DNA from: a virus
Lineage: Duplodnaviria; Caudoviricetes
DNA length: 64,000 nt
IMG/VR virus record: IMGVR_UViG_3300028887_000085
Span: 47,111 to 111,110 of that record
Direction: 5' to 3' (one strand)
In this document: piece by piece, positions 5,492-63,591 of the stretch
Numbering within the stretch: the stretch's first letter is position 1
Layout: every line of letters starts with the position of its first letter
Notes under the pieces: model-generated
Seen by the model: the letters and a program-made list of their open reading frames with translations, nothing else
Database searches by the model: none
What the model was told of the DNA's origin: nothing
Program-made: the position numbers and the translations under genes

Positions 5492-5853
5492 GCGGCTTAT
5501 ACATCAAGGGGATGAAGATGCCGGAGCCTGGAACGGTGCTGGATGTCAAAGTGTATAGCGATGGTCTTGTGACCGTGTGGGACAAAAAGATTGGGTGGCT
5601 ACATCATCATGCCATCCCCATCCCCGATGTGGTGGAGCGGCCCAGGTGGATTCCCGTGAAGGAGCGGTTGCCGGATGCCTACGAGGACGTGCTGCTTCAG
5701 TTCCCGAATAATCAGGCGGCGGGATTCTGCGACAGAGACGGCTGCTGGGGCGTTTATTCCGGTGACGGGTTCTATACCGAAGTTGCCAACAACGAGCCGA
5801 AACCTACGCATTGGATGAAGAAACTGCCGGAGCCGCCAAAGGAGGAAACATGA
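5488..5853 (+). CDS. DUF551-family phage protein
   Basis: WIPVKERLP ... THWMKKLPEPPKEE. Confidence 0.7.
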   Translation: MSGLYIKGMKMPEPGTVLDVKVYSDGLVTVWDKKIGWLHHHAIPIPDVVERPRWIPVKERLPDAYEDVLLQFPNNQAAGFCDRDGCWGVYSGDGFYTEVANNEPKPTHWMKKLPEPPKEET

Positions 5854-6212
5854 GCGTACTGATTAAGGGCATGGAGATGCCTGTCATCGAACTTGAGTGG
5901 ACAATACGGCACGGCGCTGACGGAAAATGGTACGCCATAGATACCAACGCCGAAACAACGGACGGAGAATGGCACGAAATCGTCCCCGTCCCGCCGCATG
6001 GGGATTTGATAGAACGCGACGCTGCCTATGACAAAATCGCGGAGCGGGAGGATCATATCGACTACTGCACTGAATGCGAGCACATCCGGCTTGTCCGTGG
6101 GGTTCCTTACTGCGGCATCAGCGGGAAACTCCTGCACCCCATGATGTATACGCCGATTGAGGGCGGCGGCAGCGGACCGGCACGGAACTGTGAGAAGCGG
6201 AGGAATACCTAG
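5850..6212 (+). CDS. Phage hypothetical protein
   Basis: MSVLIKGMEMP...VPPHGDLI; GGAGG RBS. Confidence 0.6.
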   Translation: MSVLIKGMEMPVIELEWTIRHGADGKWYAIDTNAETTDGEWHEIVPVPPHGDLIERDAAYDKIAEREDHIDYCTECEHIRLVRGVPYCGISGKLLHPMMYTPIEGGGSGPARNCEKRRNT

Positions 6213-6213
6213 A

Positions 6214-7088
6214 ATGGCAATCATCACTTTCAAGGACGCGGACGGCGCGGAGCAGACTCTGGATACGGCGCAGAAGTTCAATACGGCGTATCACGCGGAT
6301 TGCCTTGAAGTCCTCCGTGCGATGCCAGATCAGTGCATCGACCTGATCGTGGCAGATCCCCCGTATGGGAGCGGCCTTACGGAAAACGGCGGATGTCAAG
6401 GGTGGTTTTCCAAATATCATCAAGACAGCACTGAGCACCGCAATCTGCGTGGCCGCTTCGACAAATACAACGACAGTTCACAAACTGTTAATGTAGAGAG
6501 AGAGAGAGAGAGAGAAGCGCACCGGCGTACAACAGGTTCGGAAGTCCGGGAAGCAGATTTGAGAAGTACAAGCGTATCCCGGACGGGCGGGACACGGGCG
6601 GAGAAGTACGGAAAAAAATCATAGCGTGGGACGTGGCACCTGGAAAAGAAGTCTTCGACGAGCTTTTCCGCGTCTCACGCGAGCAGATCATATGGGGCGG
6701 AAACTACTTTGAACTTCCACCGACGCGCTGTTTCCTGATCTGGAGAAAGCTGACAATCAGTGAAAGCTTCACGATGGCGATGGCTGAATACGCCTGGACC
6801 AGCTTCAACGCGAACGCCAAGGTATTTGAATGCGCACCGCAGGGGAAGCCGGGCGACGATCGCTTCCATCCAACACAAAAGCCGATAGACCTTTATCGCT
6901 GGATATACGGGCTGTTTGCGAAGCCTGGTATGACGGTCTTCGACCCTTTCCTCGGAAGCGGAAGCAGCCGCATAGCGGCGTATGAAGCGGGACTAAACTT
7001 CATCGGCTGCGAGATCGACCCGGTGTATTTTCGGAAACAGGAAGAGCGCTTCGAGCGCATGACGGATAACTACAGCATGTTCGACTAG
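6214..7088 (+). CDS. Amino (N6/N4) DNA methyltransferase split across reading frames (6214-6624 frame 1; catalytic remainder in frame 3)
   Basis: DPPY in the first ORF; IIWGGNYF, HPTQKP, DPFLGSGS in the second; (AG)10 at 6495-6514 and A7 at 6612-6618 lie at the frame changes. Confidence 0.85.
6495..6514 (+). repeat. (AG)10 simple sequence repeat inside the methyltransferase gene
   Basis: Counted directly; encodes ...VERERERE. Confidence 0.95.
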
Positions 7089-7091
7089 GGG

Positions 7092-7802
7092 GTGAAAACC
7101 ATTATTAACGAAGCTATTTGCGGGGACTGCCTCTCCGGGATGAAAAGCCTTGCGGACAAGACTGTTGACCTCGCAATCGTTGACGCACCCTACGGTCGCA
7201 AAGAACACGGCGGGAAGTTCCGGGGACATTTCGTCCTGCAGAGGAATGGAGACCGTCTATATGTTTCCGACGCAGGTTACGAGAAAAAAGACTGGGATTA
7301 CGCTCCTGCGGGCGTGGAATACTTCCAGGAGATCATGCGCGTGTCAAAGGCACAGATTATTTGGGGGTGTAACTACTATCCCATCGTGTTCGGACCAGGC
7401 CGCATCATTTGGGACAAATGTAACGACGGATCGGATCAGTCGGACTGCGAGATCGCCTATAACTCGCTGACAGACCGCGTGGACATATTCCGGTATATGT
7501 GGCGCGGAATGATGCAGGGAAAGAGCATCGAAGAAGGAACCATTCAGCAAGGAAACAAAGCTCTCAACGAGAAGCGAATCCATCCATGCCAGAAACCCGT
7601 GAACCTTTACCGATGGATTCTTCGGACATACGCGAAAAAAGGATGGGTGATCCTTGACCCATTCCTGGGATCTGGAAGCTCACGAATCGCTGCATATGAC
7701 TTTGGACTTGATTTCGTCGGTTTTGAGATCGACACAGCATATTATGCGGCGCAGGAAGAACGATTCAGAGCGTACACGGATCAGGCAAACATGTTCGTAT
7801 GA
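7092..7802 (+). CDS. Amino DNA methyltransferase (beta class)
   Basis: DAPY, IIWGCNYY, HPCQKP, DPFLGSGS. Confidence 0.88.
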   Translation: MKTIINEAICGDCLSGMKSLADKTVDLAIVDAPYGRKEHGGKFRGHFVLQRNGDRLYVSDAGYEKKDWDYAPAGVEYFQEIMRVSKAQIIWGCNYYPIVFGPGRIIWDKCNDGSDQSDCEIAYNSLTDRVDIFRYMWRGMMQGKSIEEGTIQQGNKALNEKRIHPCQKPVNLYRWILRTYAKKGWVILDPFLGSGSSRIAAYDFGLDFVGFEIDTAYYAAQEERFRAYTDQANMFV

Positions 7803-7818
7803 AGAGAGGAGGCACAGC

Positions 7819-8736
7819 ATGGACGAGTTGGGAACTTGGGTGGCGATACCACGGGAAGAACCTCCTATGAAGAACATCTGTGTCAAAATCGGAGATGAAG
7901 GGCCGGACGGATCTATCATCAAAAACGGAGTTACCTTTACGTATCTCCAGCACGGCGACTGCCTGGAAGAAATGGCGAAACTCCCGGACGGAATCGTTGA
8001 CATGGTGCTCTGCGACCTTCCTTATGGTCAGAGCAAGCTCCGCTGGGATAGCGTGATCCCCTTCGATCCGCTTTGGCAGCAGATCAACCGCGTCTCCAAG
8101 GAAAACGCAGCCGTCGCCCTCTTCGGCTCGGAACCATTCACCAGCGCTCTTATCATGAGTAATCCCAGGCAGTTCCGGCAAAAGCTGACGTGGCTCAAGA
8201 CACGCCCCACGAACGTGTTTAACGCGAAGCGGCAGTTCATGAACTGGACGGAGGATATAGCGGTATTTTATCGCAAATCGCCCACCTTTCACCCGCAGAT
8301 GCGGACGGACGGTAAGTTTACCGGAGAGAAGAGGCAGCACACGCATACGGACCGTTCGGCGGGGATATTCCAGCAGACGGGAGAACGAGAGGGGTACGTC
8401 CACAAGGGAAACGGCGGTCTGTTTTACCCAAAGACCGTTCTGGAATTCTCCAATGTACACCACGGGAGTGAATGCTATCACCCAGTTCAAAAGCCGGTGG
8501 CACTTTTGGAATACCTTATCCGCACCTACACCAACCCCGGAGACTTGGTGCTGGATATGTGCATGGGTTCCGGAAGCACCGGCGTCGCTGCGGTTAGCAC
8601 GGGCAGGAGCTTCGTTGGAATCGAGATCGACGAGGGGTACTACGAGACGGCAAAAAAGCGGATAGTGGAGAGGATAAACGGATCATGGAACGTATCGAAT
8701 TTGGATATAACCACGGTTTCACGCGGGGAATCCTGA
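7819..8736 (+). CDS. Amino DNA methyltransferase (beta class)
   Basis: DLPY, HPVQKP, LDMCMGSGSTG. Confidence 0.88.
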   Translation: MDELGTWVAIPREEPPMKNICVKIGDEGPDGSIIKNGVTFTYLQHGDCLEEMAKLPDGIVDMVLCDLPYGQSKLRWDSVIPFDPLWQQINRVSKENAAVALFGSEPFTSALIMSNPRQFRQKLTWLKTRPTNVFNAKRQFMNWTEDIAVFYRKSPTFHPQMRTDGKFTGEKRQHTHTDRSAGIFQQTGEREGYVHKGNGGLFYPKTVLEFSNVHHGSECYHPVQKPVALLEYLIRTYTNPGDLVLDMCMGSGSTGVAAVSTGRSFVGIEIDEGYYETAKKRIVERINGSWNVSNLDITTVSRGES

Positions 8737-13765: not shown

Positions 13766-13938
13766 ATAGAAAATTTTTGGCAAACATAGAAACTTTCTAT
13801 TGACAACCGGGATTTTCGCTAGTATACTAGCGCCATAGGGTAAACAAAACCCAAGCCCCCCTCTGACAGCGGGCCTCAATAGAAAATCTCTTGTTGTTTC
13901 GGCAAAGCAATCATAGAACATTTTCTATCCGCTGTCAA
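13766..13938. promoter_or_regulatory. Genetic switch: face-to-face sigmaA promoters with ATAGAAA-N-TTTCTAT operators
   Basis: + TTGACA(13800)-17-TATACT(13823); - TTGACA(13938)-17-TATGAT(13915); palindromes at 13786-13800 and 13913-13928, half-sites near 13766 and 13879. Confidence 0.8.
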
Positions 13939-13986
13939 GAGGGATGGCGATATTCAATATGTCCCAACGGGAAAGGAGGTTATTAC

Positions 13987-14190
13987 TTGGATCTTTACCG
14001 AATCAAGGAGCTTTGCCTGCGAAACGACCTGACGATTGCAGCGCTTGAAAAACAAACGGGGCTCAGCAACGGAACCATCAGCAAGTGGAAAGAGTGCAGC
14101 CCCCGTGCTGACAACCTCAAGTGCATAGCAGACTACTTCGGCGTGACAATGGACTATCTCATGACGGGGAGGGAGGAAGCAGATGCCTAG
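13987..14190 (+). CDS. Cro-like XRE HTH regulator
   Basis: AAAGGAGG RBS, TTG start; TIAALEKQTGLSNGTISKW...IADYFGVTMDYL. Confidence 0.85.
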   Translation: MDLYRIKELCLRNDLTIAALEKQTGLSNGTISKWKECSPRADNLKCIADYFGVTMDYLMTGREEADA

Positions 14191-14377
14191 AGAGAATCCC
14201 GATTACCGGGACATCCTTGAGCGGCTGGACAAGGCGTTTCCCAACAAGGAAGTCCTGACAAAAACGGAGACGGCGGCGTGGCTGGGAATTAGCCTCAAGA
14301 CGCTGAAGCGCCGGTACAGCCTGCCTCCCGGCTACAACAGCAAGGTCCAGGTCGCAAAGGCGGTGGCGAGCCGCTAA
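14183..14377 (+). CDS. Small HTH DNA-binding protein (excisionase-like)
   Basis: LTKTETAAWLGISLKTLKRRY. Confidence 0.6.
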   Translation: MPRENPDYRDILERLDKAFPNKEVLTKTETAAWLGISLKTLKRRYSLPPGYNSKVQVAKAVASR

Positions 14378-15477
14378 TGGGAGAAACCTATTACAGCCGC
14401 GTTTATACTGACCGGCCCGAATACGCCGACTTTGATGCTCCTCATAAATTTCAGGCCATACAGGGTATTGTCGCCCGGAGACTCCGGGAACACCCAAAGG
14501 CGATCTGCTCCTACAGCGGCGGGGCAGACAGCGACATCCTTCTTGACCTGATCGAGCGGACACGGACCATCTTCAAGCTGCCGCCGGTGAAGTATGTATT
14601 CTTCAATACGGGGCTGGAAATGCAGGCGACGAAGGACCACGTTGCGGCGACCTCAGAGAAATACGGCGTGGAAATCGAAACGGTGCGGCCAAAGGTCAAC
14701 ATCGTCCAGGCTTCCCGGAAGTACGGAATCCCATTTGTCAGCAAGATCATGAGCTATCAACTGGAAGAATGGCAGAAGAAGGACGTCCCCATGACCATTG
14801 CCGACGAATACAACGCGGCGGAGGACAAGGAAGCAAAGCGGGCGGAGCTGAAGGAACGGTATCCAAAATGCGAAAGCCTCATCAACTTCATCTGCTGCTG
14901 TAATTCCAAAGGAGAGCCCCGGCCCAACATCCAGCTCGTCATCAATTCCAGCCGGTTCATGCGGGACTTTATCATGGAGAATCCCCCGGATTTCCGCATC
15001 AGCGCCCAGTGCTGCGACTACTGCAAGAAGCAGGTCGCCCATAGCGTCCAGAAAAATTACGACATGGTAATCACCGGAGAGCGCCGGGACGAAGGCGGCA
15101 TGAGAAGCGTTCCGCGAAAGGACAACACGACCATGTGCTTCACAGAGACCGGCGACGGGAAATTCCGGCTCCGCCCGCTCTTCTACGTCAGCGACGGAGA
15201 CAAAGCCTGGTACAAAGAAGAATACGGCATCCGATATTCCGACGCCTACGAGGTCTACGGTCTCTCCAGGACGGGGTGCTGCGGATGCCCTATCAGCTAC
15301 CGCGCCGTGGACGACCTGGAACTGATAGGGAAGTACGAACCCAACGTGGCGAAGGCCGCATGGAACATCTTCGGAGCGAGTTACCGTTACCGGCAGAAAT
15401 ATGTCGCGTATAAGGCCGAGCGGGACCGGACAGAAAAGGAAGCAAAGAAGGAGGTCGAAGGGCAATTAGCATTTTAG
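14377..15477 (+). CDS. PAPS reductase-family (PP-loop) protein
   Basis: SYSGGADS, NTGLE, CC..CKK, GERRDEGG.R, RTGCCGCP. Confidence 0.85.
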   Translation: MGETYYSRVYTDRPEYADFDAPHKFQAIQGIVARRLREHPKAICSYSGGADSDILLDLIERTRTIFKLPPVKYVFFNTGLEMQATKDHVAATSEKYGVEIETVRPKVNIVQASRKYGIPFVSKIMSYQLEEWQKKDVPMTIADEYNAAEDKEAKRAELKERYPKCESLINFICCCNSKGEPRPNIQLVINSSRFMRDFIMENPPDFRISAQCCDYCKKQVAHSVQKNYDMVITGERRDEGGMRSVPRKDNTTMCFTETGDGKFRLRPLFYVSDGDKAWYKEEYGIRYSDAYEVYGLSRTGCCGCPISYRAVDDLELIGKYEPNVAKAAWNIFGASYRYRQKYVAYKAERDRTEKEAKKEVEGQLAF

Positions 15478-15580
15478 AAGAAATCGCCGTAGTCAAGCGG
15501 CGCATCCAGGCACTTCAGAAGGAGCTTGCAGATTTGGAAGCCTGTTTAGACGAAGACGAACAGGATGGAGACGACCGCTC

Positions 15581-16159
15581 ATGAGTGCTTTGATCCCCTT
15601 CACCCAAGAGGAACTGGCGGAACTGGCGGAGTTCGACGCGGAGATAGAAAACCAGCACGACTACGACCCGTCTGAAGTAGAAGCCGCACGCCTCCGCGAC
15701 CAAAGCATACTCGATGAACGAGCCGAACCGAAGCGCCTGCGGAAGCGGAAAGCGGACAGGGAATACTACCGAAAGAACAAAGAGCGCATCAACGCACGAA
15801 ACCGCGAGTATGCCGCCGCCCACGCGGATGAAATCAAGGCGTACAGGCAGCGATACTTCTCCGAACACAAGCCGAACATTATGGAGCGCCGGAAAGCCTA
15901 CACAGACGCCAACCGGGAATCCATCGCGGAGTATCAGAGAAGCTACCATCTGCTTCATAAGGACGAGCACAACGCCTACTCCAAACAGTATCTCACATAC
16001 CACAGGGAGGAAAACAAGGCGAGAAGCGCGGAATGGCGGAAAGCGAACCCGGAGCGTAGCAGGGAAATCAAACGTGCCTGGTGGGACAAGCACAAGGACG
16101 AGATCAATGCCAAGCGGCGCGAGAAATACGCGGCGAAGAAATTGGAGGCGACAGCATGA
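15581..16159 (+). CDS. Charged ~15-residue-repeat protein
   Basis: Repeating EYxxxHxExIxAY units. Confidence 0.6.
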   Translation: MSALIPFTQEELAELAEFDAEIENQHDYDPSEVEAARLRDQSILDERAEPKRLRKRKADREYYRKNKERINARNREYAAAHADEIKAYRQRYFSEHKPNIMERRKAYTDANRESIAEYQRSYHLLHKDEHNAYSKQYLTYHREENKARSAEWRKANPERSREIKRAWWDKHKDEINAKRREKYAAKKLEATA

Positions 16160-16365
16160 GCGACAAGCAGAGAATCCTCAAGCACCTTCAGGAAAAGGGA
16201 AGCATCACCCCGATGGAAGCGCTGGAGCAATACGGGTGCTACCGGCTGGGGGCCAGAGTGTTCGACCTCCGGCGCGACGGCTATGAGATTAGCACCACCA
16301 TCGTCGAGGGAACGGACCGCAACGGCGAACCCATGAAGTACGCCAAATACAGCATGGAAAAATGA
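16156..16365 (+). CDS. Winged-HTH protein
   Basis: RILKHLQ..GSITPMEAL..YGCYRLGARVFDLRRDG. Confidence 0.75.
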   Translation: MSDKQRILKHLQEKGSITPMEALEQYGCYRLGARVFDLRRDGYEISTTIVEGTDRNGEPMKYAKYSMEK

Positions 16366-16464
16366 AAAGCCGCCCGGATGTTGGCGCATCCGGAGCGGCT
16401 GGGGCGAGAAGGTTTGTGAAGCTATCTCGTCTCCTAGAATAACACAGCCAGAAGGGAAATGCAA
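16365..16464 (-). ncRNA. Putative short antisense transcript (promoter plus terminator)
   Basis: - strand TTGCAT-17-(TG)TATTCT; hairpin GCCGCCCGGATG-TTGGCG-CATCCGGAGCGGC with T tract on the - strand. Confidence 0.45.
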
Positions 16465-17205
16465 ACCATGCTTAAAAGAATCACATTCCTGGACCGTGAG
16501 AGCTGGCTGGAAGGGCGGCAGCGGCAGGGGATCGGCGCGAGCGAAGCCGCCGCCATATGCGGATTTTCCCAATGGCAGACGAGGACCGAACTTTGGGAAA
16601 TCAAAACCGGACGCCGGGCGCGGAAGGATATCAGCGACAAGGACTATGTGGGGCGCGGACACCTCATGGAGGGCGCGGTGCGGGACTTCTACGCCGCCCT
16701 GCACCCTGAGCACGAGATCGATCACCACCCCTACGACATCCTCTTCCAAGCCGAAAGACCGTGGCTGTTTGCGACGCTGGACGGAGAGATCAAGGAAACC
16801 GGATTCAAGAACCCTCCGGAAGGAACCAGACGCATTGAAATTCCCGCAGGCGGGGTGCCGGTTGAAGTTCCGAGGGGAGACACGAAGATCCCCTTTATCC
16901 GCCACGGAATCCTTGAGATCAAGACTTCCGCACCGAACAACAAGGCGGCATGGGCGGAATGGGACGGAAGGATACCGGACGCCTACTACTGTCAATGCTG
17001 CCACCAGCTCCTTGCTACCGGCTGGGATTTCGTGGTCCTTCAGCCCGCTCTATGGCACCACAACGGGGACATCACCCTCAAGGACGCCTATGTGATCGAG
17101 CGCAGCGAGCACGAAGCGGACATCGCATGGGTGCTGGAGCAGGAAACCGAGTTTTGGGACAGCGTACAGACCGGGAAGAGACCCGGCGTACCGATCAGAT
17201 TTTGA
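16459..17205 (+). CDS. YqaJ-like viral exonuclease
   Basis: WL..R..GIGASEAAAI.G, GH..E, ATLDG, LEIKT, Y..Q..H. Confidence 0.9.
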   Translation: MQTMLKRITFLDRESWLEGRQRQGIGASEAAAICGFSQWQTRTELWEIKTGRRARKDISDKDYVGRGHLMEGAVRDFYAALHPEHEIDHHPYDILFQAERPWLFATLDGEIKETGFKNPPEGTRRIEIPAGGVPVEVPRGDTKIPFIRHGILEIKTSAPNNKAAWAEWDGRIPDAYYCQCCHQLLATGWDFVVLQPALWHHNGDITLKDAYVIERSEHEADIAWVLEQETEFWDSVQTGKRPGVPIRF

Positions 17206-17219
17206 AAGGAGACACAACA

Positions 17220-17456
17220 ATGGGCACCAAATTTTATGAAGTTGTTTATAAGCAGGGCGAGATCGGTTGGAGCGGGAGACCCTACACCTATAAGTCCGAG
17301 TTGGAACTGAGCCTCAAGCAGAAGGTCTACGCCCCCACCTACAAGAACCCCCGGCAGGAGGCGATGGTCGTCGCCGTGAACTGCCCCGATCCCGGCTTTG
17401 CCTGCAAGGAGATCACCGAGATCATGGCGGAGGCGGAAGACGATGCCCGATCTTGA
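17220..17456 (+). CDS. Phage hypothetical protein
   Basis: GAAAGGAG RBS; SGRPYTY motif. Confidence 0.6.
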   Translation: MGTKFYEVVYKQGEIGWSGRPYTYKSELELSLKQKVYAPTYKNPRQEAMVVAVNCPDPGFACKEITEIMAEAEDDARS

Positions 17457-18372
17457 ATTCAAGCTGACCACAGATCTTGCGCCGGTCAAAAGGATGACCC
17501 TGGACGCGAACTTCGCGGAAGTGGAAGCACAGCTCAAAGAGCTGATGTCCCCTTACGAAAAGCTCGTTCTTCGGGAGGAGGACATCGCCGAAGGGAAGAA
17601 TCTGCTGGCGAGAATCCGAAAGGTGAAATCGTCCGTTGACGAATACCGCAAGAGCGTCAAGCGCGACTTCACCGCGCCGCTGACCGCCTTTGAAGAGAAG
17701 TGCAAGGCGCTGACCGCCGTCTGCTACGAGAGCGAGACCAACCTCTCCGAGCAGATCAACAAATTCACCGAGCAGCGCAAGGCGGAGAAGCTGGCAGCGC
17801 TCCGGGAATACTTCGATACCCACGTCTCCGAAATGGCGGATTTCCTCACCTATGAGCAGATCGAAAACCCCAAGTGGGGCAACGTCACATTTACAGCCGA
17901 AGCGGCGCAGAAGGAGATCGAACAGGCGATTGATATGTGCGCCGACGGCGTGAGCGCCATCCGTGGAATGAACAGCGAATTCGAGGCTACCCTGCTGGAC
18001 CGCTACGCCAAGACGCACGATCTCGCCGGGGTGATGAAGCTCAACGGGGAACTGGCGGAAAGAAAGCGCCGGGAGGAAGAGCGGAAGGAAGCCCAGCGCA
18101 AGGCGGAAGAGGAAGCGCGGGAAAGAGCGGAAGCCGCACGGAAAGCCGCCGAAGAGGAACGGGCGCGGCAGGCGGAGGAAATGCGCAGGCAGATGGCCGC
18201 GATGCCCCGCGAGCCGGAGCCTCCCAAGGCAGAGCCTGAACCGGAGAAGCCGGAGACGCCCAAGGAGGAAACGCGATACAGCATCACCTTCCGCGTGGAC
18301 GCCACCCGCAAACAGCTTTTGGAGCTGAAGGAAGCCTGCGACCGCATCGGCATCAGGATCATGAGGGTCTGA
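17443..18372 (+). CDS. DUF1351-family coiled-coil protein
   Basis: NF.E....L; RK.VK..F..PL..FE; typical position next to YqaJ. Confidence 0.75.
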   Translation: MPDLEFKLTTDLAPVKRMTLDANFAEVEAQLKELMSPYEKLVLREEDIAEGKNLLARIRKVKSSVDEYRKSVKRDFTAPLTAFEEKCKALTAVCYESETNLSEQINKFTEQRKAEKLAALREYFDTHVSEMADFLTYEQIENPKWGNVTFTAEAAQKEIEQAIDMCADGVSAIRGMNSEFEATLLDRYAKTHDLAGVMKLNGELAERKRREEERKEAQRKAEEEARERAEAARKAAEEERARQAEEMRRQMAAMPREPEPPKAEPEPEKPETPKEETRYSITFRVDATRKQLLELKEACDRIGIRIMRV

Positions 18373-18374
18373 CC

Positions 18375-18578
18375 GTGGCGGCGGCGAAAAAGAAGACGGA
18401 ACTCACCCTGCCGGAGAAGGGCTTGCGCTTTGAAGTCAGAAACGCCAACGGAGCGGTCATGGCGCAGACGGATTACCCGTCGTGCTACCCCGACCGCGCC
18501 AGACGGGACGAACTGCGCAAGGCCGGTTACAAGCTCTATCTCGGCGGCAAGGTTTTCCGGGAGGAGAAGAAGAAATGA
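18375..18578 (+). CDS. Phage hypothetical protein
   Basis: M.T....C.P......L.KAGYKLYL.GK. Confidence 0.55.
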   Translation: MAAAKKKTELTLPEKGLRFEVRNANGAVMAQTDYPSCYPDRARRDELRKAGYKLYLGGKVFREEKKK

Positions 18579-19018
18579 TCTGGATTGGGATTGACCCCGG
18601 CGCGAAGGGGGCAATGGCGCTCTTGGGCGTCAAGGACGGACCGGAGATTATCCCCTTCGACCAGCAGAAATACATCGACCGGTTGTGGATGTATCAGATC
18701 GAAGGCTTCGACATGATCTGCTGCATCGAGGCAGTCCACAGCATCAGCGGGCAAGGCATCGCCTCCAGCTTCAAATTCGGAACCGCTTACGGCTGGCTGC
18801 TGGGGATGCTGGACTCTATCGGCATCCCTTACCAGCCCATCACCCCGCAGAAGTGGAAGAAGGAGTTTGGCCTCAACTCCGACAAGGCGGCGTCGGTCGA
18901 AGTGTGCAAGAGGCTTTACCCAAACGTGAGTCTTCTGCGGACGGAGCGAAGCAGGAAGGAAGACGACGGGATGGCGGAGGCTTTACTTATGGCTACCTAC
19001 GCCTATCGGAAATTTTAG
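18575..19018 (+). CDS. RuvC-like Holliday junction resolvase
   Basis: IGIDPG, IE.V, PQKWKK, DGMAEALL. Confidence 0.85.
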   Translation: MIWIGIDPGAKGAMALLGVKDGPEIIPFDQQKYIDRLWMYQIEGFDMICCIEAVHSISGQGIASSFKFGTAYGWLLGMLDSIGIPYQPITPQKWKKEFGLNSDKAASVEVCKRLYPNVSLLRTERSRKEDDGMAEALLMATYAYRKF

Positions 19019-19033
19019 AAAGGGTGCTGGGAA

Positions 19034-19381
19034 ATGGCAAGCTCAAATAGCAAATTCACGCCGGACGAGCTGGAGAGCATCTTCATCTGGGATCTGCTCT
19101 GCGAAGCCATACCTCTGACGGCGGAGGAACGGCGGGATATCCGCGAGCGCGACACCTATGCGTCCACCGGGAATGTTTCGACGGCCCGCGTCAAAAAGCC
19201 ATTGACCGAAGAACAGCGCAAGGCGAAGAACGAAGCCAAGCGCCGCTGGCGGGAAGAGCACAAGGAGCAGATCGCCGCTTACCGGGAAGCCCACCGGCAG
19301 GAGATCAGAGAGAGGCAGAGGGCTTATGACCAGGCAAAAAGCAAGAGCAAACGAACCCAAGTCCAACAGACGCAGCCGTGA
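19034..19381 (+). CDS. Charged-repeat protein, paralog-like to 15581-16159
   Basis: FTxxEL...D N-terminus and HKEQIAAYREAH repeats. Confidence 0.55.
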   Translation: MASSNSKFTPDELESIFIWDLLCEAIPLTAEERRDIRERDTYASTGNVSTARVKKPLTEEQRKAKNEAKRRWREEHKEQIAAYREAHRQEIRERQRAYDQAKSKSKRTQVQQTQP

Positions 19382-19883
19382 AGAAGCGGAACTGCTTTTC
19401 CGGGAAAATATGCGGCTCGTTTACTTCGTCGCCAACAACATGGATATCACCGTCAGCGACGACGTGATCCAGGACGGGTACATGGGCCTCTGGAAAGCGG
19501 CGCTCAAGTACGACCCGGAAAAGGCGCAGAGCTTCGCTACCTATGCCGTTCCAGCCATCAGAAACAGCATCGCCTATGCCCGCAGGGCATCATTGCGGAA
19601 CCTGCAGCCGGAGATATCCCTCAATCAGCAAATCGACGGAGACGACGCCCGGATGCTGATGGATACCGTGCCGGACGAAAAATGGGACCATCCCGTGAAA
19701 AACACGGAATTCCGCCTGTTTATCGACAAGGTGCTTACCGCCGAGGAAAAGCGCATCGCCCTCATGCGGGCAGACGGAGCCAGCCAGCGGGCAATCGGCG
19801 CGGTCTTCGGGCGCTCGGACGCCTGGGTGATCGAGCGGCTGAATCGGATCAAAATGAAATTAAAACGCGAAACGAAAGGATGA
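19326..19883 (+). CDS. Sigma-70-family RNA polymerase sigma factor
   Basis: Region 2 QDGYMGLWKAALKYDP..SFATYAVPAIRN; region 4 SQRAIGAVFGRS. Confidence 0.8.
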   Translation: MTRQKARANEPKSNRRSREEAELLFRENMRLVYFVANNMDITVSDDVIQDGYMGLWKAALKYDPEKAQSFATYAVPAIRNSIAYARRASLRNLQPEISLNQQIDGDDARMLMDTVPDEKWDHPVKNTEFRLFIDKVLTAEEKRIALMRADGASQRAIGAVFGRSDAWVIERLNRIKMKLKRETKG

Positions 19884-20953
19884 TAATTTTGGCAAGACTC
19901 AATAATTCCCTCGCTCCCAGCGGAGCGGGAGCCATCACGAATGCAGACGATAAATTCAGCGTGGCGATCCGTAAAGACTATTTGCAAGATATGATCCACA
20001 AGGCTACGCCGGACGCGCAGAGCGCGGCCAGACTCACCGGCAGCCTGATTTCCCTCGTGGCCTCCAACACGGAGCTCCAGAAGTGCAGCCCCGCCTCCAT
20101 CGTGGCGGCTGCGCTGCGGGGCGAAGGTCTCGGCCTCATGCTGGGCTTCGGCTATTACGTCGTGCCCTACGCCGGTACTGCCCAGTTTCAGCTTGGCTAC
20201 AAGGGTCTCATAGCGATGGCGATGGCGGGCGGCGACGTAGCGGACATGGACTGCGTGGAGGTCAGGGAAGGTGAATACGTGGGGCGCAACCGCAGGACCA
20301 AGCGCCCGGAATTCGACTTCTCCCTTTACCAGACTGACGCGGAGGCGGAGCAGCACCCGGTCATCGGCTATTACGCCTACATCGAAAAGCGGGACGGCTT
20401 CTTCCGGTCTGAGTACATGTCTATCGGCGCGATCATGGACCACGCGGAGCAATACAGCAAGACCTTCGACCGGGCGAAATACCGCCAGCTCATCAGCGGC
20501 GAAATGAGCCCCGAAGACGCCGAGCGGCTGAAGAAGAAGTCCCCGTGGTACAGCGCCACAGAGACCATGATGAAAAAGACGGTGATCCGCCGTCTGCTGA
20601 ACAGCGGCTATGTCCAGCTCCGCACCATCGGAGAGATCAAGAGCGTTGTGGAAGCGGAGGACACCGCCATCAGCGACGCGGAAGCCATCGCCACCTTCGA
20701 CGTTATGGACGTGGACCCCAGCACCGGGGAAATCCTCAGCCAGTCCACCCAGGTGGCCCCTGAAGCCGCAGAGAGCGCAGAAAAGGCGGAAGCTGTCCCG
20801 GCACCTGCCAAAGAGAAATCTGCGACACGCGGCGGCAGGAAAGCGCAGGAGAACAAAAACGAGCCGAAGGACGTGGAATACACCGAGGTCAAGCCCGTGA
20901 CGATCACGGCAGACGACGAAGACGCGGCGCTTTCCGGCTTTTTCTCCGACTGA
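19880..20953 (+). CDS. recT: RecT-family ssDNA annealing protein
   Basis: YYVVPY..AQFQLGYKGLI, M.KKTVIRRLL. Confidence 0.88.
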   Translation: MIILARLNNSLAPSGAGAITNADDKFSVAIRKDYLQDMIHKATPDAQSAARLTGSLISLVASNTELQKCSPASIVAAALRGEGLGLMLGFGYYVVPYAGTAQFQLGYKGLIAMAMAGGDVADMDCVEVREGEYVGRNRRTKRPEFDFSLYQTDAEAEQHPVIGYYAYIEKRDGFFRSEYMSIGAIMDHAEQYSKTFDRAKYRQLISGEMSPEDAERLKKKSPWYSATETMMKKTVIRRLLNSGYVQLRTIGEIKSVVEAEDTAISDAEAIATFDVMDVDPSTGEILSQSTQVAPEAAESAEKAEAVPAPAKEKSATRGGRKAQENKNEPKDVEYTEVKPVTITADDEDAALSGFFSD

Positions 20954-20982
20954 CGAAACCGTGACAGACAGGAGGCGAAATT

Positions 20983-56445: not shown

Positions 56446-58983
56446 ATGCCGATCAGCGGAAATAACTATACATCGCCGACGTGGGTCAACGAGGGGCCTC
56501 CCCCCATCGACGCCAGCGAGCTTCAGGCGATCAGCGATTCGATCCAGAACAGCCAGATCATCCGGGGATTCGGGCCTCCTACTGCGCAGACTGCCGGAAT
56601 CGTCGGGCAGAGATACGCAGACCTCAGAACGACGCCGCCGACCATTTACCGGCTGATGCAGCCCGGAGAAAACGCGAATAATTGGGTGGAGGACAACGCT
56701 TACGAAAACGCCAGTATCGACCGGCTGATGAAAGAGGCGGATTCCTTTGTGGAGCTGCCCTTCACGCTGACAGAAGGATACTACGTCAACTACGAAGACG
56801 GGACACTGGCCGAGGCGGTGGCATCCAGCGCGACGAACTATATCAACATCGGGGCGTTCGATCATATCATATATAAGCAACGTATCACAACGAGCAATCC
56901 GGTATTGTCCGGAATTGCGTTCTATGACCGCAACAAAACCTATATCACTGGCACAGCAGCAAGGTCTGGTCAAAGCGTAGGATACGTTGAGATTTGTCGT
57001 AATATACCGACTAATGCTGTCTATGTGCGTTGTACAACAATCACAAACACGGAAACCTATGGTGACTTCACCATCTTTGGATATTCCGAAGCTGGGCGAC
57101 GGTTTGATGTTGCTGTAAATGGCGTCGGCAACGCAAACGCCAAGCTCTTTACCCGTATAACGGATATCACTTATGAGCGAGGCGGCATTGTGATAACCAA
57201 CGGAGATACTGCCGGGACTGCCTTAATGCCGAGCTATGTGCGCAATGTCGGTTTTCTGTCGGTGCGAGCCGGATCTACAATAGATGTGGATGACGGATAT
57301 AAGTTTGCCGTTAACCTGTATACGCTGGACGATACGCCCGTGTTCATCGCCGGGAAAAGCGCAACAATCAGCGGGATGTTCACTGTTCCTTTCGACTGCA
57401 ATATCCGGTTCTCCATCTCCGACCTTGAGAACACGCCGCAAACCACGACGGACATTGCAGAACACTTCATACTGAATCTCTACGCGCTGGACGACGCGCT
57501 GGAGATAAAATACGCCACAAAAAACGAACTGAACGACGCGGCGCTCTACTCTATTGATTATTCCGGTTTCAAAGTAGCATACGGCGGAATCAACGCTTCC
57601 GGCAATTCCAACGAAAAAAGAGACCGTCTTCGTTATACCTACAACTCTCTCGGAGGATTTGCAGTAAAGGCTGGTTCTACCATAGAAGCGAACACCGGAT
57701 ACAAATTCTGCGTAGCCCGTTACTCCAGCTATAACAGCAACTCCAACTACGAGCTCATTGAATTTATCGACATGAGGACGACGCCTTATACGGTGCCGGA
57801 GGACTGTTTCATCCGCATCAGTTTCGCGGCGGAAGACAATGCATTGCTGTGGACAAAAGTGGATGGGGAATATTTCCTCACGGAAGCGGGAGAAGCCGCC
57901 GCCGCCGGGGCCGTTTCCATGAATCTTTTCGGCGGCACGGTCAAAGAAGAGATCGAAAAGCTCAGCAACAGCATAGACATCTGGCACGAGCCCATCCGGC
58001 TGGAGACAGAAATCCCCATCAACGCCACGGAATTCCACCTGCTTTTTGACGAACTCGTGGATGCGGGATACCTTACGAGGACGCTGCTGGGGAAACAGAA
58101 CAACGACGACAATTATCCGATCTATCAGTATACGCTCCGCCACGACATGAACCATGTTGATCCCAACTACAATATCGTGCAGTGGGACGGGACGAACGAA
58201 CTGTACCAACGACCGAAGATCTGGATGGACAGCGGAATCCACGGGAACGAACGGACGACTCCCTATGTCCTGTGGGACTTCATCTATAACCTCTGCACCA
58301 GAACGGAATATCAGGACATGCGCAACGCTTTCGACTGGTATTTCGTACCTCTGGTAAACCCGTGGGGATTCAGCAACACTGCCTACAAAAACGGCGTGGT
58401 GAACAACGGCAACGGCTACACGTCCTCCACCATCTCCCAATATACCATCGCCGCAAACACGGAATCCGTGCATCAGGGCATCCGCCGCAATCTCGCCGGT
58501 ATCGACATCAACAGAGATTTCGGAACCTTTGCGACACAAGAAGCGCAGTGGATTCGGGATTCTCTGATCTCGCTGACGGCAGACGGAAGGAATTTCACCT
58601 TTGCGGTGGATTCCCATCAGGCGACGAACGGAGATGACGTTAATATCATCGGAGCGTTCCTCTCCCTGAACTATTCGGCGAGCGCTGCGGCCAAAGCCCT
58701 GATTTGGGGAAAGTGGATGCAGGCCGGGGCGATGACAGAAATGATCATCGCCAACGATCTGGACCGCCAAGTCGTGCAGTCCGTGTATCCGTGGGACGGG
58801 ACAAATCTGGAGACGGCGCGAAACTATATGGCGGCATATGCGGACTATTCCATGTGTTTTGAGGGAGGACAGACCTGCATCTATTACAGCCAGAGCAGCA
58901 CATGGAGCAATCCGATAGCGAGGACCTTCATCAACACCATGTTCCACGGGTTTACCCACACTTTGACTGAGCATTGGATGTGA
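56446..58983 (+). CDS. Virion protein with C-terminal M14 zinc carboxypeptidase-like domain
   Basis: SGIHGNE, VPLVNPWG, RRNLAGIDINRDF, DSH, FE; N-terminal WVNE..PPI.A..L. Confidence 0.75.
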   Translation: MPISGNNYTSPTWVNEGPPPIDASELQAISDSIQNSQIIRGFGPPTAQTAGIVGQRYADLRTTPPTIYRLMQPGENANNWVEDNAYENASIDRLMKEADSFVELPFTLTEGYYVNYEDGTLAEAVASSATNYINIGAFDHIIYKQRITTSNPVLSGIAFYDRNKTYITGTAARSGQSVGYVEICRNIPTNAVYVRCTTITNTETYGDFTIFGYSEAGRRFDVAVNGVGNANAKLFTRITDITYERGGIVITNGDTAGTALMPSYVRNVGFLSVRAGSTIDVDDGYKFAVNLYTLDDTPVFIAGKSATISGMFTVPFDCNIRFSISDLENTPQTTTDIAEHFILNLYALDDALEIKYATKNELNDAALYSIDYSGFKVAYGGINASGNSNEKRDRLRYTYNSLGGFAVKAGSTIEANTGYKFCVARYSSYNSNSNYELIEFIDMRTTPYTVPEDCFIRISFAAEDNALLWTKVDGEYFLTEAGEAAAAGAVSMNLFGGTVKEEIEKLSNSIDIWHEPIRLETEIPINATEFHLLFDELVDAGYLTRTLLGKQNNDDNYPIYQYTLRHDMNHVDPNYNIVQWDGTNELYQRPKIWMDSGIHGNERTTPYVLWDFIYNLCTRTEYQDMRNAFDWYFVPLVNPWGFSNTAYKNGVVNNGNGYTSSTISQYTIAANTESVHQGIRRNLAGIDINRDFGTFATQEAQWIRDSLISLTADGRNFTFAVDSHQATNGDDVNIIGAFLSLNYSASAAAKALIWGKWMQAGAMTEMIIANDLDRQVVQSVYPWDGTNLETARNYMAAYADYSMCFEGGQTCIYYSQSSTWSNPIARTFINTMFHGFTHTLTEHWM

Positions 58984-58987
58984 TCGC

Positions 58988-59644
58988 ATGAGCCTATCCA
59001 AAGTGATCGAGATTGCCAGGGGAGACCTGGGATATACGGAATCTCCCCCCAACAGCAACCGCACGAAATACGGCGAAGCCTATGGGATGAACGGACAGCC
59101 CTGGTGCGTCATGGCCCTGTGGTATTGGTTCCGGGAGGCCGGGGAGCGCATGGCCTTTTTCGGGGGCGGCAAGACGGCCTCCTGCGGAACGCTGCTGCGG
59201 TGGTATCGGGAGCAGGGGCTTACGGTGCCGGTGGAGCAGGTGCAGGCCGGGGATATCGTGATCCTCAATTTCCACGGGACGCAGGACACAGAGCATTGCG
59301 GGCTGGTGGTGGAGGATGACAAGGGCGAGGACGGTAAGCTGATAAGCGTCTATACCATTGAGGGGAACACATCGCCGGGGTTGGAAGGAAGCCAGGATAA
59401 TGGCGGGTGCGTTGCACTCAAGCGCAGATTCTTTAATCAGATCGTCGGCGTCTGCCGCCCGCAGTACAATCCGGAGGAGCCGGAGACCGTGGACGATATC
59501 AAGGGAAGGTGGAGCGAAAAAGATATCCGCCTGTGCATGGAGCACGGGATTCTGAAGGGATATCCCGACGGGACCTTCCGACCCACGCAGCCGGTCACGC
59601 GGGAAGAACTGGCCGCCGTGATCGTTCGGCTCATCGAATTGTAA
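58988..59644 (+). CDS. Endolysin: CHAP domain plus SLH domain
   Basis: PWC, HCG.V, TIEGNT; GILKGYPDGTFRP...VTREELA. Confidence 0.88.
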   Translation: MSLSKVIEIARGDLGYTESPPNSNRTKYGEAYGMNGQPWCVMALWYWFREAGERMAFFGGGKTASCGTLLRWYREQGLTVPVEQVQAGDIVILNFHGTQDTEHCGLVVEDDKGEDGKLISVYTIEGNTSPGLEGSQDNGGCVALKRRFFNQIVGVCRPQYNPEEPETVDDIKGRWSEKDIRLCMEHGILKGYPDGTFRPTQPVTREELAAVIVRLIEL

Positions 59645-59659
59645 AGGGGGGAACAGCGG

Positions 59660-60844
59660 ATGACGCAGGGAAACGGGAGAAGCGACAACGAGGGCATGGC
59701 GGAATTCGCCAAGCAGCTTTGGGAACGCTATATGCGCCAGCGCGTGATCTCCGACCTGCTGAAGCATTCGCTGGACGGATATAAGGCGAAGGTGGTTTCC
59801 AACAACGGGAACGGGACGCTGACGGTGATCCGCCCCTACGACGCCCAATCTCTGACGCTGAAATGCCCACCGGCGCTGGCGACCTGGGCGGCGGCGGGGG
59901 ACCAGGTGCTGGTGGTATCCCTTGGGGACGCCAGCAACAGCTTTATCCTCTGCGCAACGGACATCGACGGATTCGACCTGGATATCCTATCGGACCAGGA
60001 CCCGGTGATGAACGCGGCGGATGCAGACCCCGGAACATCCAGCGAAGCCTCCAGAGCGGACCACGTGCATCCGTCGGACACTTCCCGCGTTCCCACTTCC
60101 CGCACCATCAACGGATACGATCTGACGCAGGACGTGACGCTTACGGCAGCGGACGTGGGGGCGCTGGCCTCCGGCGGCACGGCAGTTGCGGCGAAGAGGC
60201 TCCAGTACGATCACAGCGTTGAAACCTCCGGAGGATGGTATAAAGTCTTTGAGCTGACATCGGCGGAGATCAACCGTTCCTATAACATGACGATGCTCAT
60301 TGACAACGGCTATCTGAACCGCCACGGGATACTGACCTTTTACCTGAATCATGCTTCAAACGGAAGTTTCAGCGGCTCCGCTTACTGGCTGGCGACGGAT
60401 TTTCCCCTGACCGAATTCCGGTTTCTGACGGACGACACGACAAAAACCTTCACGCTTTACGCCAGCAACACACAGGGAAACCTGTATTTCCGGATTCTGG
60501 CGGCGGACCCAAGAAACCCCAACAACACCTACTTTGACCCTTCTTCCTGCTGGGCGTCCGACGCTGTTAGCGAACCGACGACCGCAACGCTGGTGTACGC
60601 TCCCCTTGGCTATCCACTGAAGTTTGACGCGGTGCCGGTTTCCGCAGGAACGAACCAGGTCATCCTTACCGTTTCGGACGAGAGAATCCGGCAGACCTAT
60701 GAGCTTGTGCGCATCGAATTCGCGGACCCAAGCTATATTACAACAGGCTATACGTGGGACACGTCGACGGGGACCTTCACCGTCACGGGGACGGCGACGG
60801 CGGCGACCACGGCCAATATCCTGCTTATCAGGAGGAGCGCATAA
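59660..60844 (+). CDS. Tail fibre/baseplate protein
   Basis: ASRADHVHP, VPTSRTING..L..DVTLTAADVGAL. Confidence 0.7.
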   Translation: MTQGNGRSDNEGMAEFAKQLWERYMRQRVISDLLKHSLDGYKAKVVSNNGNGTLTVIRPYDAQSLTLKCPPALATWAAAGDQVLVVSLGDASNSFILCATDIDGFDLDILSDQDPVMNAADADPGTSSEASRADHVHPSDTSRVPTSRTINGYDLTQDVTLTAADVGALASGGTAVAAKRLQYDHSVETSGGWYKVFELTSAEINRSYNMTMLIDNGYLNRHGILTFYLNHASNGSFSGSAYWLATDFPLTEFRFLTDDTTKTFTLYASNTQGNLYFRILAADPRNPNNTYFDPSSCWASDAVSEPTTATLVYAPLGYPLKFDAVPVSAGTNQVILTVSDERIRQTYELVRIEFADPSYITTGYTWDTSTGTFTVTGTATAATTANILLIRRSA

Positions 60845-60845
60845 A

Positions 60846-61100
60846 ATGAAACAATACTATGTGATTGAGATCCAGCAATACGCCAACGGAGAATACGGGC
60901 ATCTCGTCCACTTCGCCTATGACGAAGACCCGGACAAGGCGCGTCTCAAGGGGGAGAGCAAATATCACGAGGTCCTTGCGGCTGCGGCGGTGAGCGAGCT
61001 GCCGAGCCATGCGGCGATCCTCATGACAGCAGAGGGATTCCCAATCTATCATCAATGCTATAAGCACCCTGCGGCCTCTGATGCTGTGGAGGATGAATAA
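60846..61100 (+). CDS. Phage hypothetical protein
   Basis: AGGAG RBS; YVIEIQ..ESKYH.VLAAAAVS.LP.H. Confidence 0.65.
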   Translation: MKQYYVIEIQQYANGEYGHLVHFAYDEDPDKARLKGESKYHEVLAAAAVSELPSHAAILMTAEGFPIYHQCYKHPAASDAVEDE

Positions 61101-61481
61101 ATGGCAAGCGGAACGGGAGAAAGGCCGACGCCTGACATGATTCCGGCAGAAAGCAGGACGGTGTACAGATATAACGCCTATCGGGCAGAGTCAACAAACA
61201 CGATCACCGTACAGCTAAACAAGGATTTTATTAACAATGGTACGACCTACAGCCTGTTCGGGCCGTTGTATTTCATCGACTATAACTCGACCCCCACGGT
61301 CGATGAATACTACATGCTGATGAATCCAACGAATCCAAACCGCATCATCCGCGTGACGACAAACAACACCGCACGAAATATTTCCAGCGCCGCATATGAC
61401 ATGTCTACCGGGATTCTCACCGTAACGCTCAGCGGCAATCGGGCCTATTCGGGGGTGGACGTGTATATATCCCACGTATAA
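61101..61481 (+). CDS. Fibre-tip-like hypothetical protein
   Basis: MASGT start, GGAGG RBS, lower GC. Confidence 0.55.
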   Translation: MASGTGERPTPDMIPAESRTVYRYNAYRAESTNTITVQLNKDFINNGTTYSLFGPLYFIDYNSTPTVDEYYMLMNPTNPNRIIRVTTNNTARNISSAAYDMSTGILTVTLSGNRAYSGVDVYISHV

Positions 61482-61542
61482 GGAGGAATTCTATTTCTCG
61501 TGAAGCCGTCGAAGCAATATAGCGAGCTATGTAATAAGAGAC

Positions 61543-61779
61543 AAAAAAAGAGAGGGCCAAGGCGTCGTCCTTATTCGCCTGAATGGCGGGTATCCGCGCA
61601 AGCGCGAATACCCGCGGATTCCGGCGAAACGTCCTTTTCAAACCGAAGCGATGCTGCTTCGGTTTGATTTTTGGACGGGAGTTCGCACCGGCCCTCTCTT
61701 TTTGAAAGGAGACACCCGTGGAAACACCACTAACCACAAGTGCCGGTGGTATTGTAACAGAAGCGGGGGAAGATCGCAA
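61543..61779 (-). ncRNA. Putative sRNA convergent with the late operon
   Basis: - strand TTGCGA-17-(TG)TACAAT at 61779-61751; CTCCTTTC anti-SD; GAGAGGGCC/GGCCCTCTC-T7 terminator. Confidence 0.5.
61566..61678. repeat. Dispersed structured element, copy C
   Basis: CGTCCTTA-TTCGCCTGAAT..ATTCCGGCGAA-ACGTCCTTTTCAAACCGAAGC..GCTTCGGTTTG. Confidence 0.75.
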
Positions 61780-61787
61780 GAGTGACG

Positions 61788-61934
61788 GGAGAGACGGATT
61801 GCCACGGCCTTCGGCCTCGCAATGACGAGGGACGGGGGAGCGGAGAGACGGATTGCCACGGCCTTCGGCCTCGCAATGACGAGGGACGGGGGAGCGGAGA
61901 GACGGATTGCCACGGGCTTCGCCCTCGCAATGAC
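61788..61934. repeat. Tandem 54-bp REP-like repeats (3 palindromic units)
   Basis: GGAGAGACGGATTGCCACGGCCTTCGGCCTCGCAATGAC at 61788 and 61842, loop variant at 61896. Confidence 0.9.
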
Positions 61935-61961
61935 GCTGCGGCGGGACGGGGGACGGGGGGA

Positions 61962-62477: not shown

Positions 62478-62490
62478 GGTATCGCTCCTT

Positions 62491-63414: not shown

Positions 63415-63431
63415 TGTGTTTCTCCTTTCGT

Positions 63432-63537: not shown

Positions 63538-63591
63538 GGGTGTCTTTATCGTCTCGCAAAAGGACGGATTGTAACCGGCGGTTTGAAAAAA

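Follow-up and report, generated by a model that had tools for sequence, protein, structure and literature searches.

The switching of DNA methylases by short sequence repeats that change in length is textbook material for a few bacterial pathogens. Here we analyse a split DNA methyltransferase gene carrying an (AG)10 tract, located in a 64,000 nt stretch (the window) of a virus record from IMG/VR (IMGVR_UViG_3300028887_000085; 111,110 bp). The nearest validated case is M.MmyCI, a Type III mod gene of Mycoplasma mycoides subsp. capri, for which experiments demonstrated that (AG)12 gives a truncated, switched-off form and (AG)10 an active one (PMC3498834). As in the window, the (AG)n lies inside the open reading frame (ORF) of a DNA adenine methyltransferase, and stops in the other frames flank the tract (PMC3498834). 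However, M.MmyCI is bacterial and, as a Type III Mod, has a Res partner, whereas the phage gene appears to be an orphan beta-class enzyme, and the mycoplasma gene has neither the 19 nt leader found here nor a second slippery site or an alternative coding frame behind the tract.

Phasevarions, the Type III mod and Type I hsd genes of Haemophilus, Neisseria, Helicobacter and Streptococcus suis that vary by simple sequence repeats (SSRs), resemble the present locus in that the length of an SSR turns a methyltransferase on or off, and in that surveys of homologs show variable tracts (PMC5909438, PMC7383803). Those genes lie on the chromosomes of pathogens, carry tetra-, penta- or mononucleotide repeats and have demonstrated effects on regulons (PMC5909438, PMC7383803), whereas the gene described here is viral and belongs to a family with (AG)n or poly-G in the loop after motif IV, and any effect of it on host expression would be hypothetical. 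In the NgoAV Type I system of Neisseria gonorrhoeae, a poly-G switch in hsdS likewise leads to alternative protein forms by a change in repeat length (PMC9577141). The outcome there is a truncated specificity subunit (PMC9577141), whereas here overlapping frames would encode alternative loops that rejoin the same C-terminal domain. Among phages, the hypermutable repeats of contingency loci in T2 and T4 have been described as bet-hedging against host defence, but these are homopolymers of at least six bases in coliphages, and the words 'methyltransferase' and 'dinucleotide' do not occur in the text (bioRxiv 10.1101/2025.10.21.683753).

In the open-access literature we found no description of repeat-driven methylase switching for phage-encoded orphan methylases, and no paper on a phage orphan methylase with a repeat-selected dual-coding loop or on the leader module. 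The best overall explanation of the locus, and in our judgement a probable one, is a phage methylase switched by the length of its AG tract, with a loop that is encoded in two frames. The new elements would be the frame-selected alternative loop and a possible frameshift cassette, within the known class of SSR phase-variable methylases.

A methyltransferase gene interrupted by an AG tract

Judged by its motifs, the gene is an orphan beta-class DNA N6/N4 methyltransferase, with motif IV (DPPY) first and motif I (FxGxG) last. The C-terminal half matches PF01555 with 51.9 bits (cut-off 26.7; E = 1.3e-13), and solved relatives with the same permuted motif order, CcrM (6PBD), M.RsrI (1EG2) and 9C3U/8URK, align in the N-terminal part around DPPY and in the C-terminal part around FxGxG (E = 1e-10 to 1e-13). 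The aligned query residues are 8–40 and about 200–265 in the two printed hits and about 197–268 in the others. DPPY is invariant across an alignment of 83 sequences. No uninterrupted ORF spans both motifs: one half is in frame 1, the other in frame 3, and a stop lies at 6622–6624 (Table 1). An earlier sequence-only reading of the window had placed the DPPY half in frame 1 and the half binding S-adenosylmethionine (AdoMet) in frame 3, had found frame 3 open from the tract to 7088, and had noticed repeated xxFxKY-type modules in alternating frames; all of these features are present.

Frame 1 contains, in this order, DPPY, GWFSKY, GRFDKY, the leader and the tract, followed by 21 residues that are module 1 read out of frame, and then by module 2 and the TAG. 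The peptide SSQTVNV precedes the (AG)10 + A; beyond the tract frame 1 reads EREREREAHRRTTGSEVREADLRSTSVSRTGGTRAEKYGKKS and continues as far as RTGGTRAEKYGKKS, where it terminates. Frame 3 has a TAA at 6489–6491, is open from there to its stop at 7086–7088, and reads (RE)n-SAPAYNRFGSPGSRFEKYKRIPDGRDTGGEVRKKIIAWDVAP. The C-half ORF called by gene callers is 151 aa long and starts at GTG 6633. Apart from the tract no lesion was found and both halves are open; the six best full-length relatives, which range from 273 to 286 aa, are 87–93% identical.

Table 1. Features of the split methyltransferase gene (positions in the window).
Feature	Position	Strand	Remarks
Methyltransferase gene, split	6214–7088	+	ATG 6214 in frame 1; stop 7086–7088 in frame 3
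N-terminal reading frame (frame 1)	6214–6624	+	ATG 6214 to TAG 6622–6624; product of 136 aa
DPPY, catalytic motif IV	6355–6366	+	frame 1
Loop module GWFSKY	6400–6417	+	frame 1
Loop module GRFDKY	6451–6468	+	frame 1
19 nt leader GTTCACAAACTGTTAATGT	6476–6494	+	peptide SSQTVNV; exact match to the consensus GTTCACAAnnTGTTAATGT
C-terminal open frame (frame 3)	6492–7088	+	module 1, KKIIAWDVAP, conserved core, AdoMet motif FLGSGSS
(AG)10 + A tract, putative primary switch	6495–6515	+	Tandem Repeats Finder; whole-record scan
Module 1, YNRFGSPGSRFEKYK	6528–6572	+	frame 3, the frame of the C-half
Module 2, RTGGTRAEKYGKK	6580–6618	+	frame 1; family consensus RTGGTWAEKYGKK
A7 run	6612–6618	+	A_AAA_AAA in frame 1; junction of the module-2 frame with the C-half
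Predicted RNA hairpin	6624–6680	+	5 nt 3' of the A-run; 11-bp outer helix (6624–6634 with 6670–6680), 7-bp inner helix

The tract is the only dinucleotide array that Tandem Repeats Finder reports within the window, and the whole record holds no other SSR of at least 5 units and no homopolymer of at least 8 bases. By frame arithmetic, 10 units connect the N-half to the module-2 frame, and 9 or 12 units connect it to the catalytic C-half. As read from the sequence, the gene is currently OFF: at (AG)10 the N-half enters module 2 and stops, and only a crossing of the junction would allow the catalytic C-half to be made. An identical 136 aa N-fragment and 151 aa C-fragment were called on a 90,290 bp contig from an independent ENA sample, and the C-fragment was called in a third sample too. 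In contig L222, from another run, 2,362 nt are 98.6% identical to the window and the sole indel is one AG unit; the resulting (AG)11 puts the N-half into a frame with early stops.

Intact alleles were found next to the split ones. Protein P0001, 93% identical, is an intact ORF reading VERERERERS. Both P0001 and P0004 read (ER)4, which fits (AG)12 if the tract is uninterrupted, and for P0001 it is the protein only that was seen. P0002 and P0003 read (ER)1, corresponding to (AG)3, and the (AG)3 allele of the P0002 lineage is identical and intact in 8 of 8 samples, a stable, in-frame state as expected where so few units leave no room for slippage. In a sister lineage with the same C-half protein (P0005/P0017), genes with (AG)8, (AG)10 and (AG)11 from three samples are all split, and the intact sibling P0005 has (AG)9. 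The claim that (AG)9 or (AG)12 yields a full enzyme agrees with the frame arithmetic, with the intact (AG)9 allele of P0005 and with the intact P0001 with its (ER)4. In the P0008 lineage, four copies have (AG)11 and one has (AG)10. Members of this lineage (L207–L211) were also seen to contain two AG tracts, one of 10–11 units with the leader and an (AG)5 about 95 nt downstream, ahead of the A7.

Split genes, recognised by their C-fragments, make up 27 of the 120 best homologs, and tracts of 8–16 units persist across many diverged lineages. Distant relatives without (AG)n carry a tract of G6–G12 at the same loop position, just after DPPY. Near-identical distant genes differ in this G tract (e.g. 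G11 vs G9), and extra poly-C, poly-G or second AG tracts occur inside the loop of some of them. Near-identical phages thus differ in AG number, with both in-frame and out-of-frame lengths, as had been anticipated when the tract was first read as a phase-variable site. The AG tract as a real hypervariable on/off site, with the comparative signature of a contingency locus, is well supported by these alleles. Furthermore, the differences in tract length among independent near-identical copies exclude a one-off assembly error.

Two coding frames behind the repeat

In relatives without any SSR (L073, L029, L078), both modules stand in tandem in one frame, ...RFGGxFDKYK...RTGGxWAxKYGKKIIxWD. In S-type genes, to which that of the window and those of many relatives belong, module 2 is one base out of phase with IIAWD, the junction reads NNA AAA AAA TC, and module 1 is in the C-terminal frame. 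From the first repeat to the A-run (74–170 nt), the module-2 frame is open in 36/36 S-type genes and the C frame in 35/36, and the third frame is open in 6/36; this pattern holds in S-type genes of every state. A codon-position test was made on the 33 nt encoding RTGGTWAEKY, comparing 30 distinct S-type genes with 11 in-phase genes. The summed entropy at the three codon positions of the module-2 frame was 4.2/5.4/11.0 in the S-type genes vs 5.3/5.3/12.1 in the in-phase ones. The module-2 peptide is nearly invariant, and the C-frame reading of the same DNA (PDGRDMGGEV and similar) changes freely. Variation in module 1 is found at third positions of the C frame, including AGC<->TCN serine switches. 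Judged by these codon patterns, the out-of-phase module 2 is still coding in the family, and both frames are under purifying selection.

We propose that the long and poorly ordered loop after DPPY holds a portable contingency module, the 19 nt leader plus (AG)n, in which slipped-strand mispairing would alter the AG count and in this way choose one of three frames after the N-half. With (AG)9 or (AG)12 the standard full-length enzyme with loop module 1 would be made (isoform 1, ON), and with (AG)8 or (AG)11 the early-stop frame would be read (OFF). The present state, (AG)10, would lead into the module-2 frame, which ends just past the A7. In the family, a difference of a single base at the A-run would connect this frame with the catalytic C-half and yield isoform 2. 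We infer frequent and reversible switching within the population, a role of this switching in bet-hedging of DNA marking, and the way in which the A7 junction would be crossed.

Both isoforms exist as intact genes among the relatives with a G tract. G10 together with A7 gives intact isoform 1, DPPYGSGGG-EFVSGTRFGGRFDRYL...KVRKKITSWD (L052–55, L061), and G9 together with A8 gives intact isoform 2, DPPYGSGGG-SSS...KIARTGGKWAAKFGKKITSWD (L075). With G9 and A7 the reading passes from the N-half into module 2 and terminates after it (L046, L047, L050), and genes with A7 and either G8 or G11 are dead (L058, L045). Forms locked by a broken G tract were found as well, L064 in isoform 2 and L051 in isoform 1. 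Close to the window's own clade, P0054/L214 is an intact isoform 2 gene, and P0012/L213 has both modules in frame by way of a 5 nt insertion and GGG AAA AAA ATC. On these comparisons, the locus points to switching between enzyme variants, beyond mere on/off.

Several observations weigh against an AG-switched enzyme with a two-frame loop. In the window, the Trp codon of module 2 has changed from TGG to CGG (Arg) at 6595–6597. This Trp is kept in 28/30 S-type genes, and L222 keeps TGG. The same base change destroys an internal NTG, the C-frame triplet in the window being ACG. Module 2 has decayed also in L080 and L199, short-tract relatives locked in isoform 1. The A7 is invariant in all S-type copies, including the closest relatives of the window, and A8 alleles are rare (3 among about 40: L064, L075 and L011). 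The states of 36 relatives are about evenly distributed, with 9 intact, 14 joined to the module-2 frame and 13 dead, and this even spread gives no sign that ON states are favoured in nature. The loop of about 85–90 residues between DPPY and WD, which bears the repeat, is not aligned to any solved structure in the sequence alignments. An AlphaFold2 model of P0012, with both modules in frame, has a confident core, and loop residues 35–125 have a predicted local distance difference test score (pLDDT) below 57; with no confident AlphaFold2 structure for the loop, the modules get no structural reading.

The selection statistics, moreover, ignore kinship and recombination between lineages. Module 2 of P0012/L213 (930–1000) differs from that of the near-identical L004 at 7/33 positions, all synonymous in the module-2 frame, and the flanking module 1 of the same two genes differs at 2/55 positions. 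The mosaic module 2 of L213 suggests patchwise recombination of loop modules between lineages.

The prediction of an OFF state and two ON isoforms with different loops has to be divided. It stands at the level of the family, where both frames are open and both isoforms are found intact in relatives, but in this copy isoform 2 is doubtful owing to the Trp to Arg change. Given that change, (AG)9 or (AG)12 would be the realistic ON route, and a slip at the A7 is unlikely to matter in this damaged copy.

The A7 junction and rival explanations

Programmed −1 frameshift cassettes are known from dnaX (A_AAA_AAG) and from the IS3 family (A_AAA_AAA/G). The junction described here is similar in its A-rich X_XXY_YYZ in phase with the upstream frame, in a predicted hairpin 5 nt downstream and in a zero-frame stop soon after. 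It differs in that the hairpin is statistically weak, and in that an upstream SSR at the DNA level decides whether the ribosome arrives in the shifting frame. In frame 1 the A7 is read as GGA AAA AAA and forms a −1 slippery heptamer in the right phase; stepping back by one base, or adding one, yields ...EKYGKK-IIAWD. That frame 1 at (AG)10 can join IIAWDVAP in this manner, as proposed earlier, agrees with the phasing of the heptamer and with the frame restored by the slip, but the run itself is invariant and the in-frame neighbours use an extra Gly wobble base. These neighbours of the window's clade have GGG/GGT + A7, together with the 5 nt insertion in L213 or other indels in L214, and are the two GGN-A7 alleles.

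Two further routes across the junction were set aside. The A-run as a frequently mutating second SSR was not seen in the window's own clade, every copy having A7. A single product made via two ribosomal shifts, +1 between the modules and −1 at the A7, was rejected, for in the junction between the modules, [CGT]C[GA]GAC[GA]GG, a +1 slippery motif is not conserved.

A programmed −1 ribosomal frameshift at the A7, or slippage of RNA polymerase, would make (AG)10 a low-level ON state producing isoform 2 without a change in the DNA. The slip would restore the ancestral ...KYGKKIIAWD, and it would follow a module-2 frame that is open up to the A-run in all S-type genes. Nearly all A-run genes encode the Lys-Lys as AAA AAA, and L007 has no full-length path unless a shift occurs at the A-run. 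Furthermore, module 2 is constrained in the 30 out-of-phase genes as in the in-phase ones, though A8 alleles are rare. Such equal constraint in and out of phase argues for useful translation without DNA change, which favours slippage or a split enzyme.

The hairpin behind the run gives a mixed picture. It folds with −27.7 kcal/mol, an ordinary energy with a z-score of only −0.58. Among 53 A-run relatives, pairing is retained in 78% of cells vs 72% when shuffled and 38–57% with slid partners. Seven pairs show double changes, some of them compensatory (e.g. GAC/GTC to GAT/ATC). The 11-bp helix is present in 35/53 genes with the A-run and in 0/29 without it. However, the hairpin occurs also in in-phase genes that need no shift (L021, L022, L070) and is absent from one out-of-phase S-type clade (L027–L061), and its pairing is partly a consequence of conserved codons (AWDV / FRVSR). 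A_AAA_AAA without AAG is, besides, a modest shifter in the bacteria studied, and the module preceding it in this copy has lost its Trp. A −1 slip at the A7 is, in our opinion, possible but rather unlikely. AG-tract switching as the main control, which is well supported, ranks above it, and the split enzyme ranks below.

Likewise rather unlikely, about as much as the slip itself, is a two-tier device operating across a broad family of gut-phage orphan methyltransferases, in which the repeat, (AG)n or poly-G, picks the frame and A_AAA_AAA with the hairpin returns the ribosome by a −1 shift, giving OFF and two enzymes. If true, the two enzymes would differ in loops that face the DNA, and a bacterial virus would have a kind of 'alternative exon' selected by frame. 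At any rate, the locus offers a case in which programmed frameshifting of a methylase can be tested.

An N-fragment ending in module 2 could also assemble with a C-fragment into an active methylase, the latter starting from an internal NTG over the Thr-Trp codons (MGGEVRKKIIAWD..., an ORF of 164 aa). The C-frame triplet at this place is ATG, GTG or TTG in 28/30 out-of-phase genes, and ORFs of 164 aa were called in many lineages. The Thr codon is ACC in 0/21 of the out-of-phase genes vs 3/7 of the in-phase ones (Fisher p = 0.011, ignoring phylogeny), but this statistic comes from few, related sequences, and no convincing Shine-Dalgarno sequence lies ahead of the internal NTG. In the window the ACG triplet closes the route; the first in-frame start is GTG 6633, past the conserved KKIIAWD. 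We consider a split enzyme improbable.

A plain pseudogene, one of three redundant methylases in decay with tract differences as neutral noise, would account for the split in at least two samples, for the two intact PF01555 genes that follow, for the damaging-looking Trp to Arg change and for OFF being as common as ON among relatives. Nevertheless, the tract is the sole lesion, the open halves resemble intact relatives closely, and the two frames are kept open in 35–36 of 36 genes. Tracts of 8–16 units persist over diverged lineages and, behind the conserved leader, in six gene families, and short tracts are stable and always in frame (8/8 samples). The sequence-only reading had itself named homologs without tracts, together with other inactivating lesions in this copy, as the sign of a pseudogene; tracts turned out to be widespread, and no second lesion was seen. 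Simple decay is even less probable than a split enzyme. An assembly or sequencing artefact, the other danger named at the outset, with AG units miscounted and the true tract in frame, is hardly credible, for although dinucleotide repeats are prone to stutter in the polymerase chain reaction, the identical 136 aa N-fragment, hence the same tract length, and with it the same 151 aa partner, came from an independent ENA assembly, and independent assemblies of the sister lineage give discrete counts of 8, 9, 10 and 11 units.

The leader-(AG)n module and its phage hosts

The consensus of the leader, GTTCACAAnnTGTTAATGT, holds over 86 distinct contexts, and its conservation ends abruptly at −19 and at the 3' end of the tract. 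The leader sets a TAA (6489–6491, frame 3) and an ATG-TAG (6491–6496, frame 2) immediately next to the tract. Matches to the pattern TTCACAR-N5-TAATGT(AG)n come from 12 viral, 78 metagenome and 24 genome contigs, the tracts ranging from 3 to 30 units, although the few matches with only three AG units may be chance. Its carriers fall into at least six unrelated gene families, including DPPY methyltransferases, EcoRI-like adenine methyltransferases, HsdS, C5 methyltransferases and two kinds of PAPS-reductase-like proteins. In HsdS the module is placed after the ARKKQYEYYRDLLLSF repeat and ahead of the target-recognition domain. The named hosts are nearly all gut or rumen Clostridia, mostly Oscillospiraceae and relatives.

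The peptide SQTVNVERERE had been suggested as a conserved recoding signal. This idea has to be given up, as the peptide translates a 19 nt leader and (AG)n that recur in unrelated gene families. From its distribution, the leader with (AG)n appears to be a portable DNA module of phage DNA-modification genes and not a ribosomal signal. By inspection only, the leader was dismissed as a promoter, the spacing of TTCACA and TAATGT being too short for −35/−10 elements, and as a strong hairpin, just a weak imperfect inverted repeat (TTCACA-N3-TGTTAA) being present.

In the EcoRI-like methylases L161, L171, L102 and L147 the module lies between two successive copies of a C-terminal ...GVPITFLDKYNPDQFEI... 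domain. The tract in these genes may pick between a short protein and one with an added second, different C-terminal domain. AG tracts without the leader occur in these phages as well: in L006 (1017–1035) and L009 (99–126), the gene just upstream of the methylase has its own (AG)9 or (AG)14, respectively, without the 19 nt leader.

The locus belongs to a system that is widespread among the phages of gut and rumen Clostridia, with the leader-(AG)n installed in many DNA-modification genes. With such a module, a phage population would be able to hedge its bets where some hosts restrict DNA that lacks methylation and others attack DNA that carries it. For annotation, it means that methylase ORFs which look 'fragmented' in gut viromes ought to be kept and not dismissed as pseudogenes or errors.

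The split gene is the first of three tandem methylase genes, the two intact PF01555 genes following directly, at 7092–7802 and about 7819–8736, without a repeat tract. The neighbourhood in relatives includes genes for Lar-like restriction alleviation, dGTP diphosphohydrolase-like and radical SAM proteins, an anti-restriction and DNA-modification island. A megablast search of the phage collection with positions 5800–7900 gave no match, and a tblastn search returned distant methylases only.

The phage is probably a temperate phage of gut Clostridia of about 90 kb. Lysogeny is plausible, as the record holds three integrase genes (PF00589). A stretch of about 7.19 kb is repeated exactly and in direct orientation, with a period of 90,149 bp, at 13771–20961 of the record and at 56810–64000 of the window (record 103920–111110), the second copy extending to the record end. 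Together with the 90,290 bp contig found elsewhere, this repeat suggests a true genome of probably about 90 kb, the 111 kb record likely overrunning it or including flanking DNA. A simple 90 kb concatemer is ruled out as stated, since the exact repeat is shared only over 7.19 kb. Inside this block, near one of the duplicated integrase genes, a 54 nt tandem repeat of 2.7 copies with 97% identity is located at 61788–61935 of the window.

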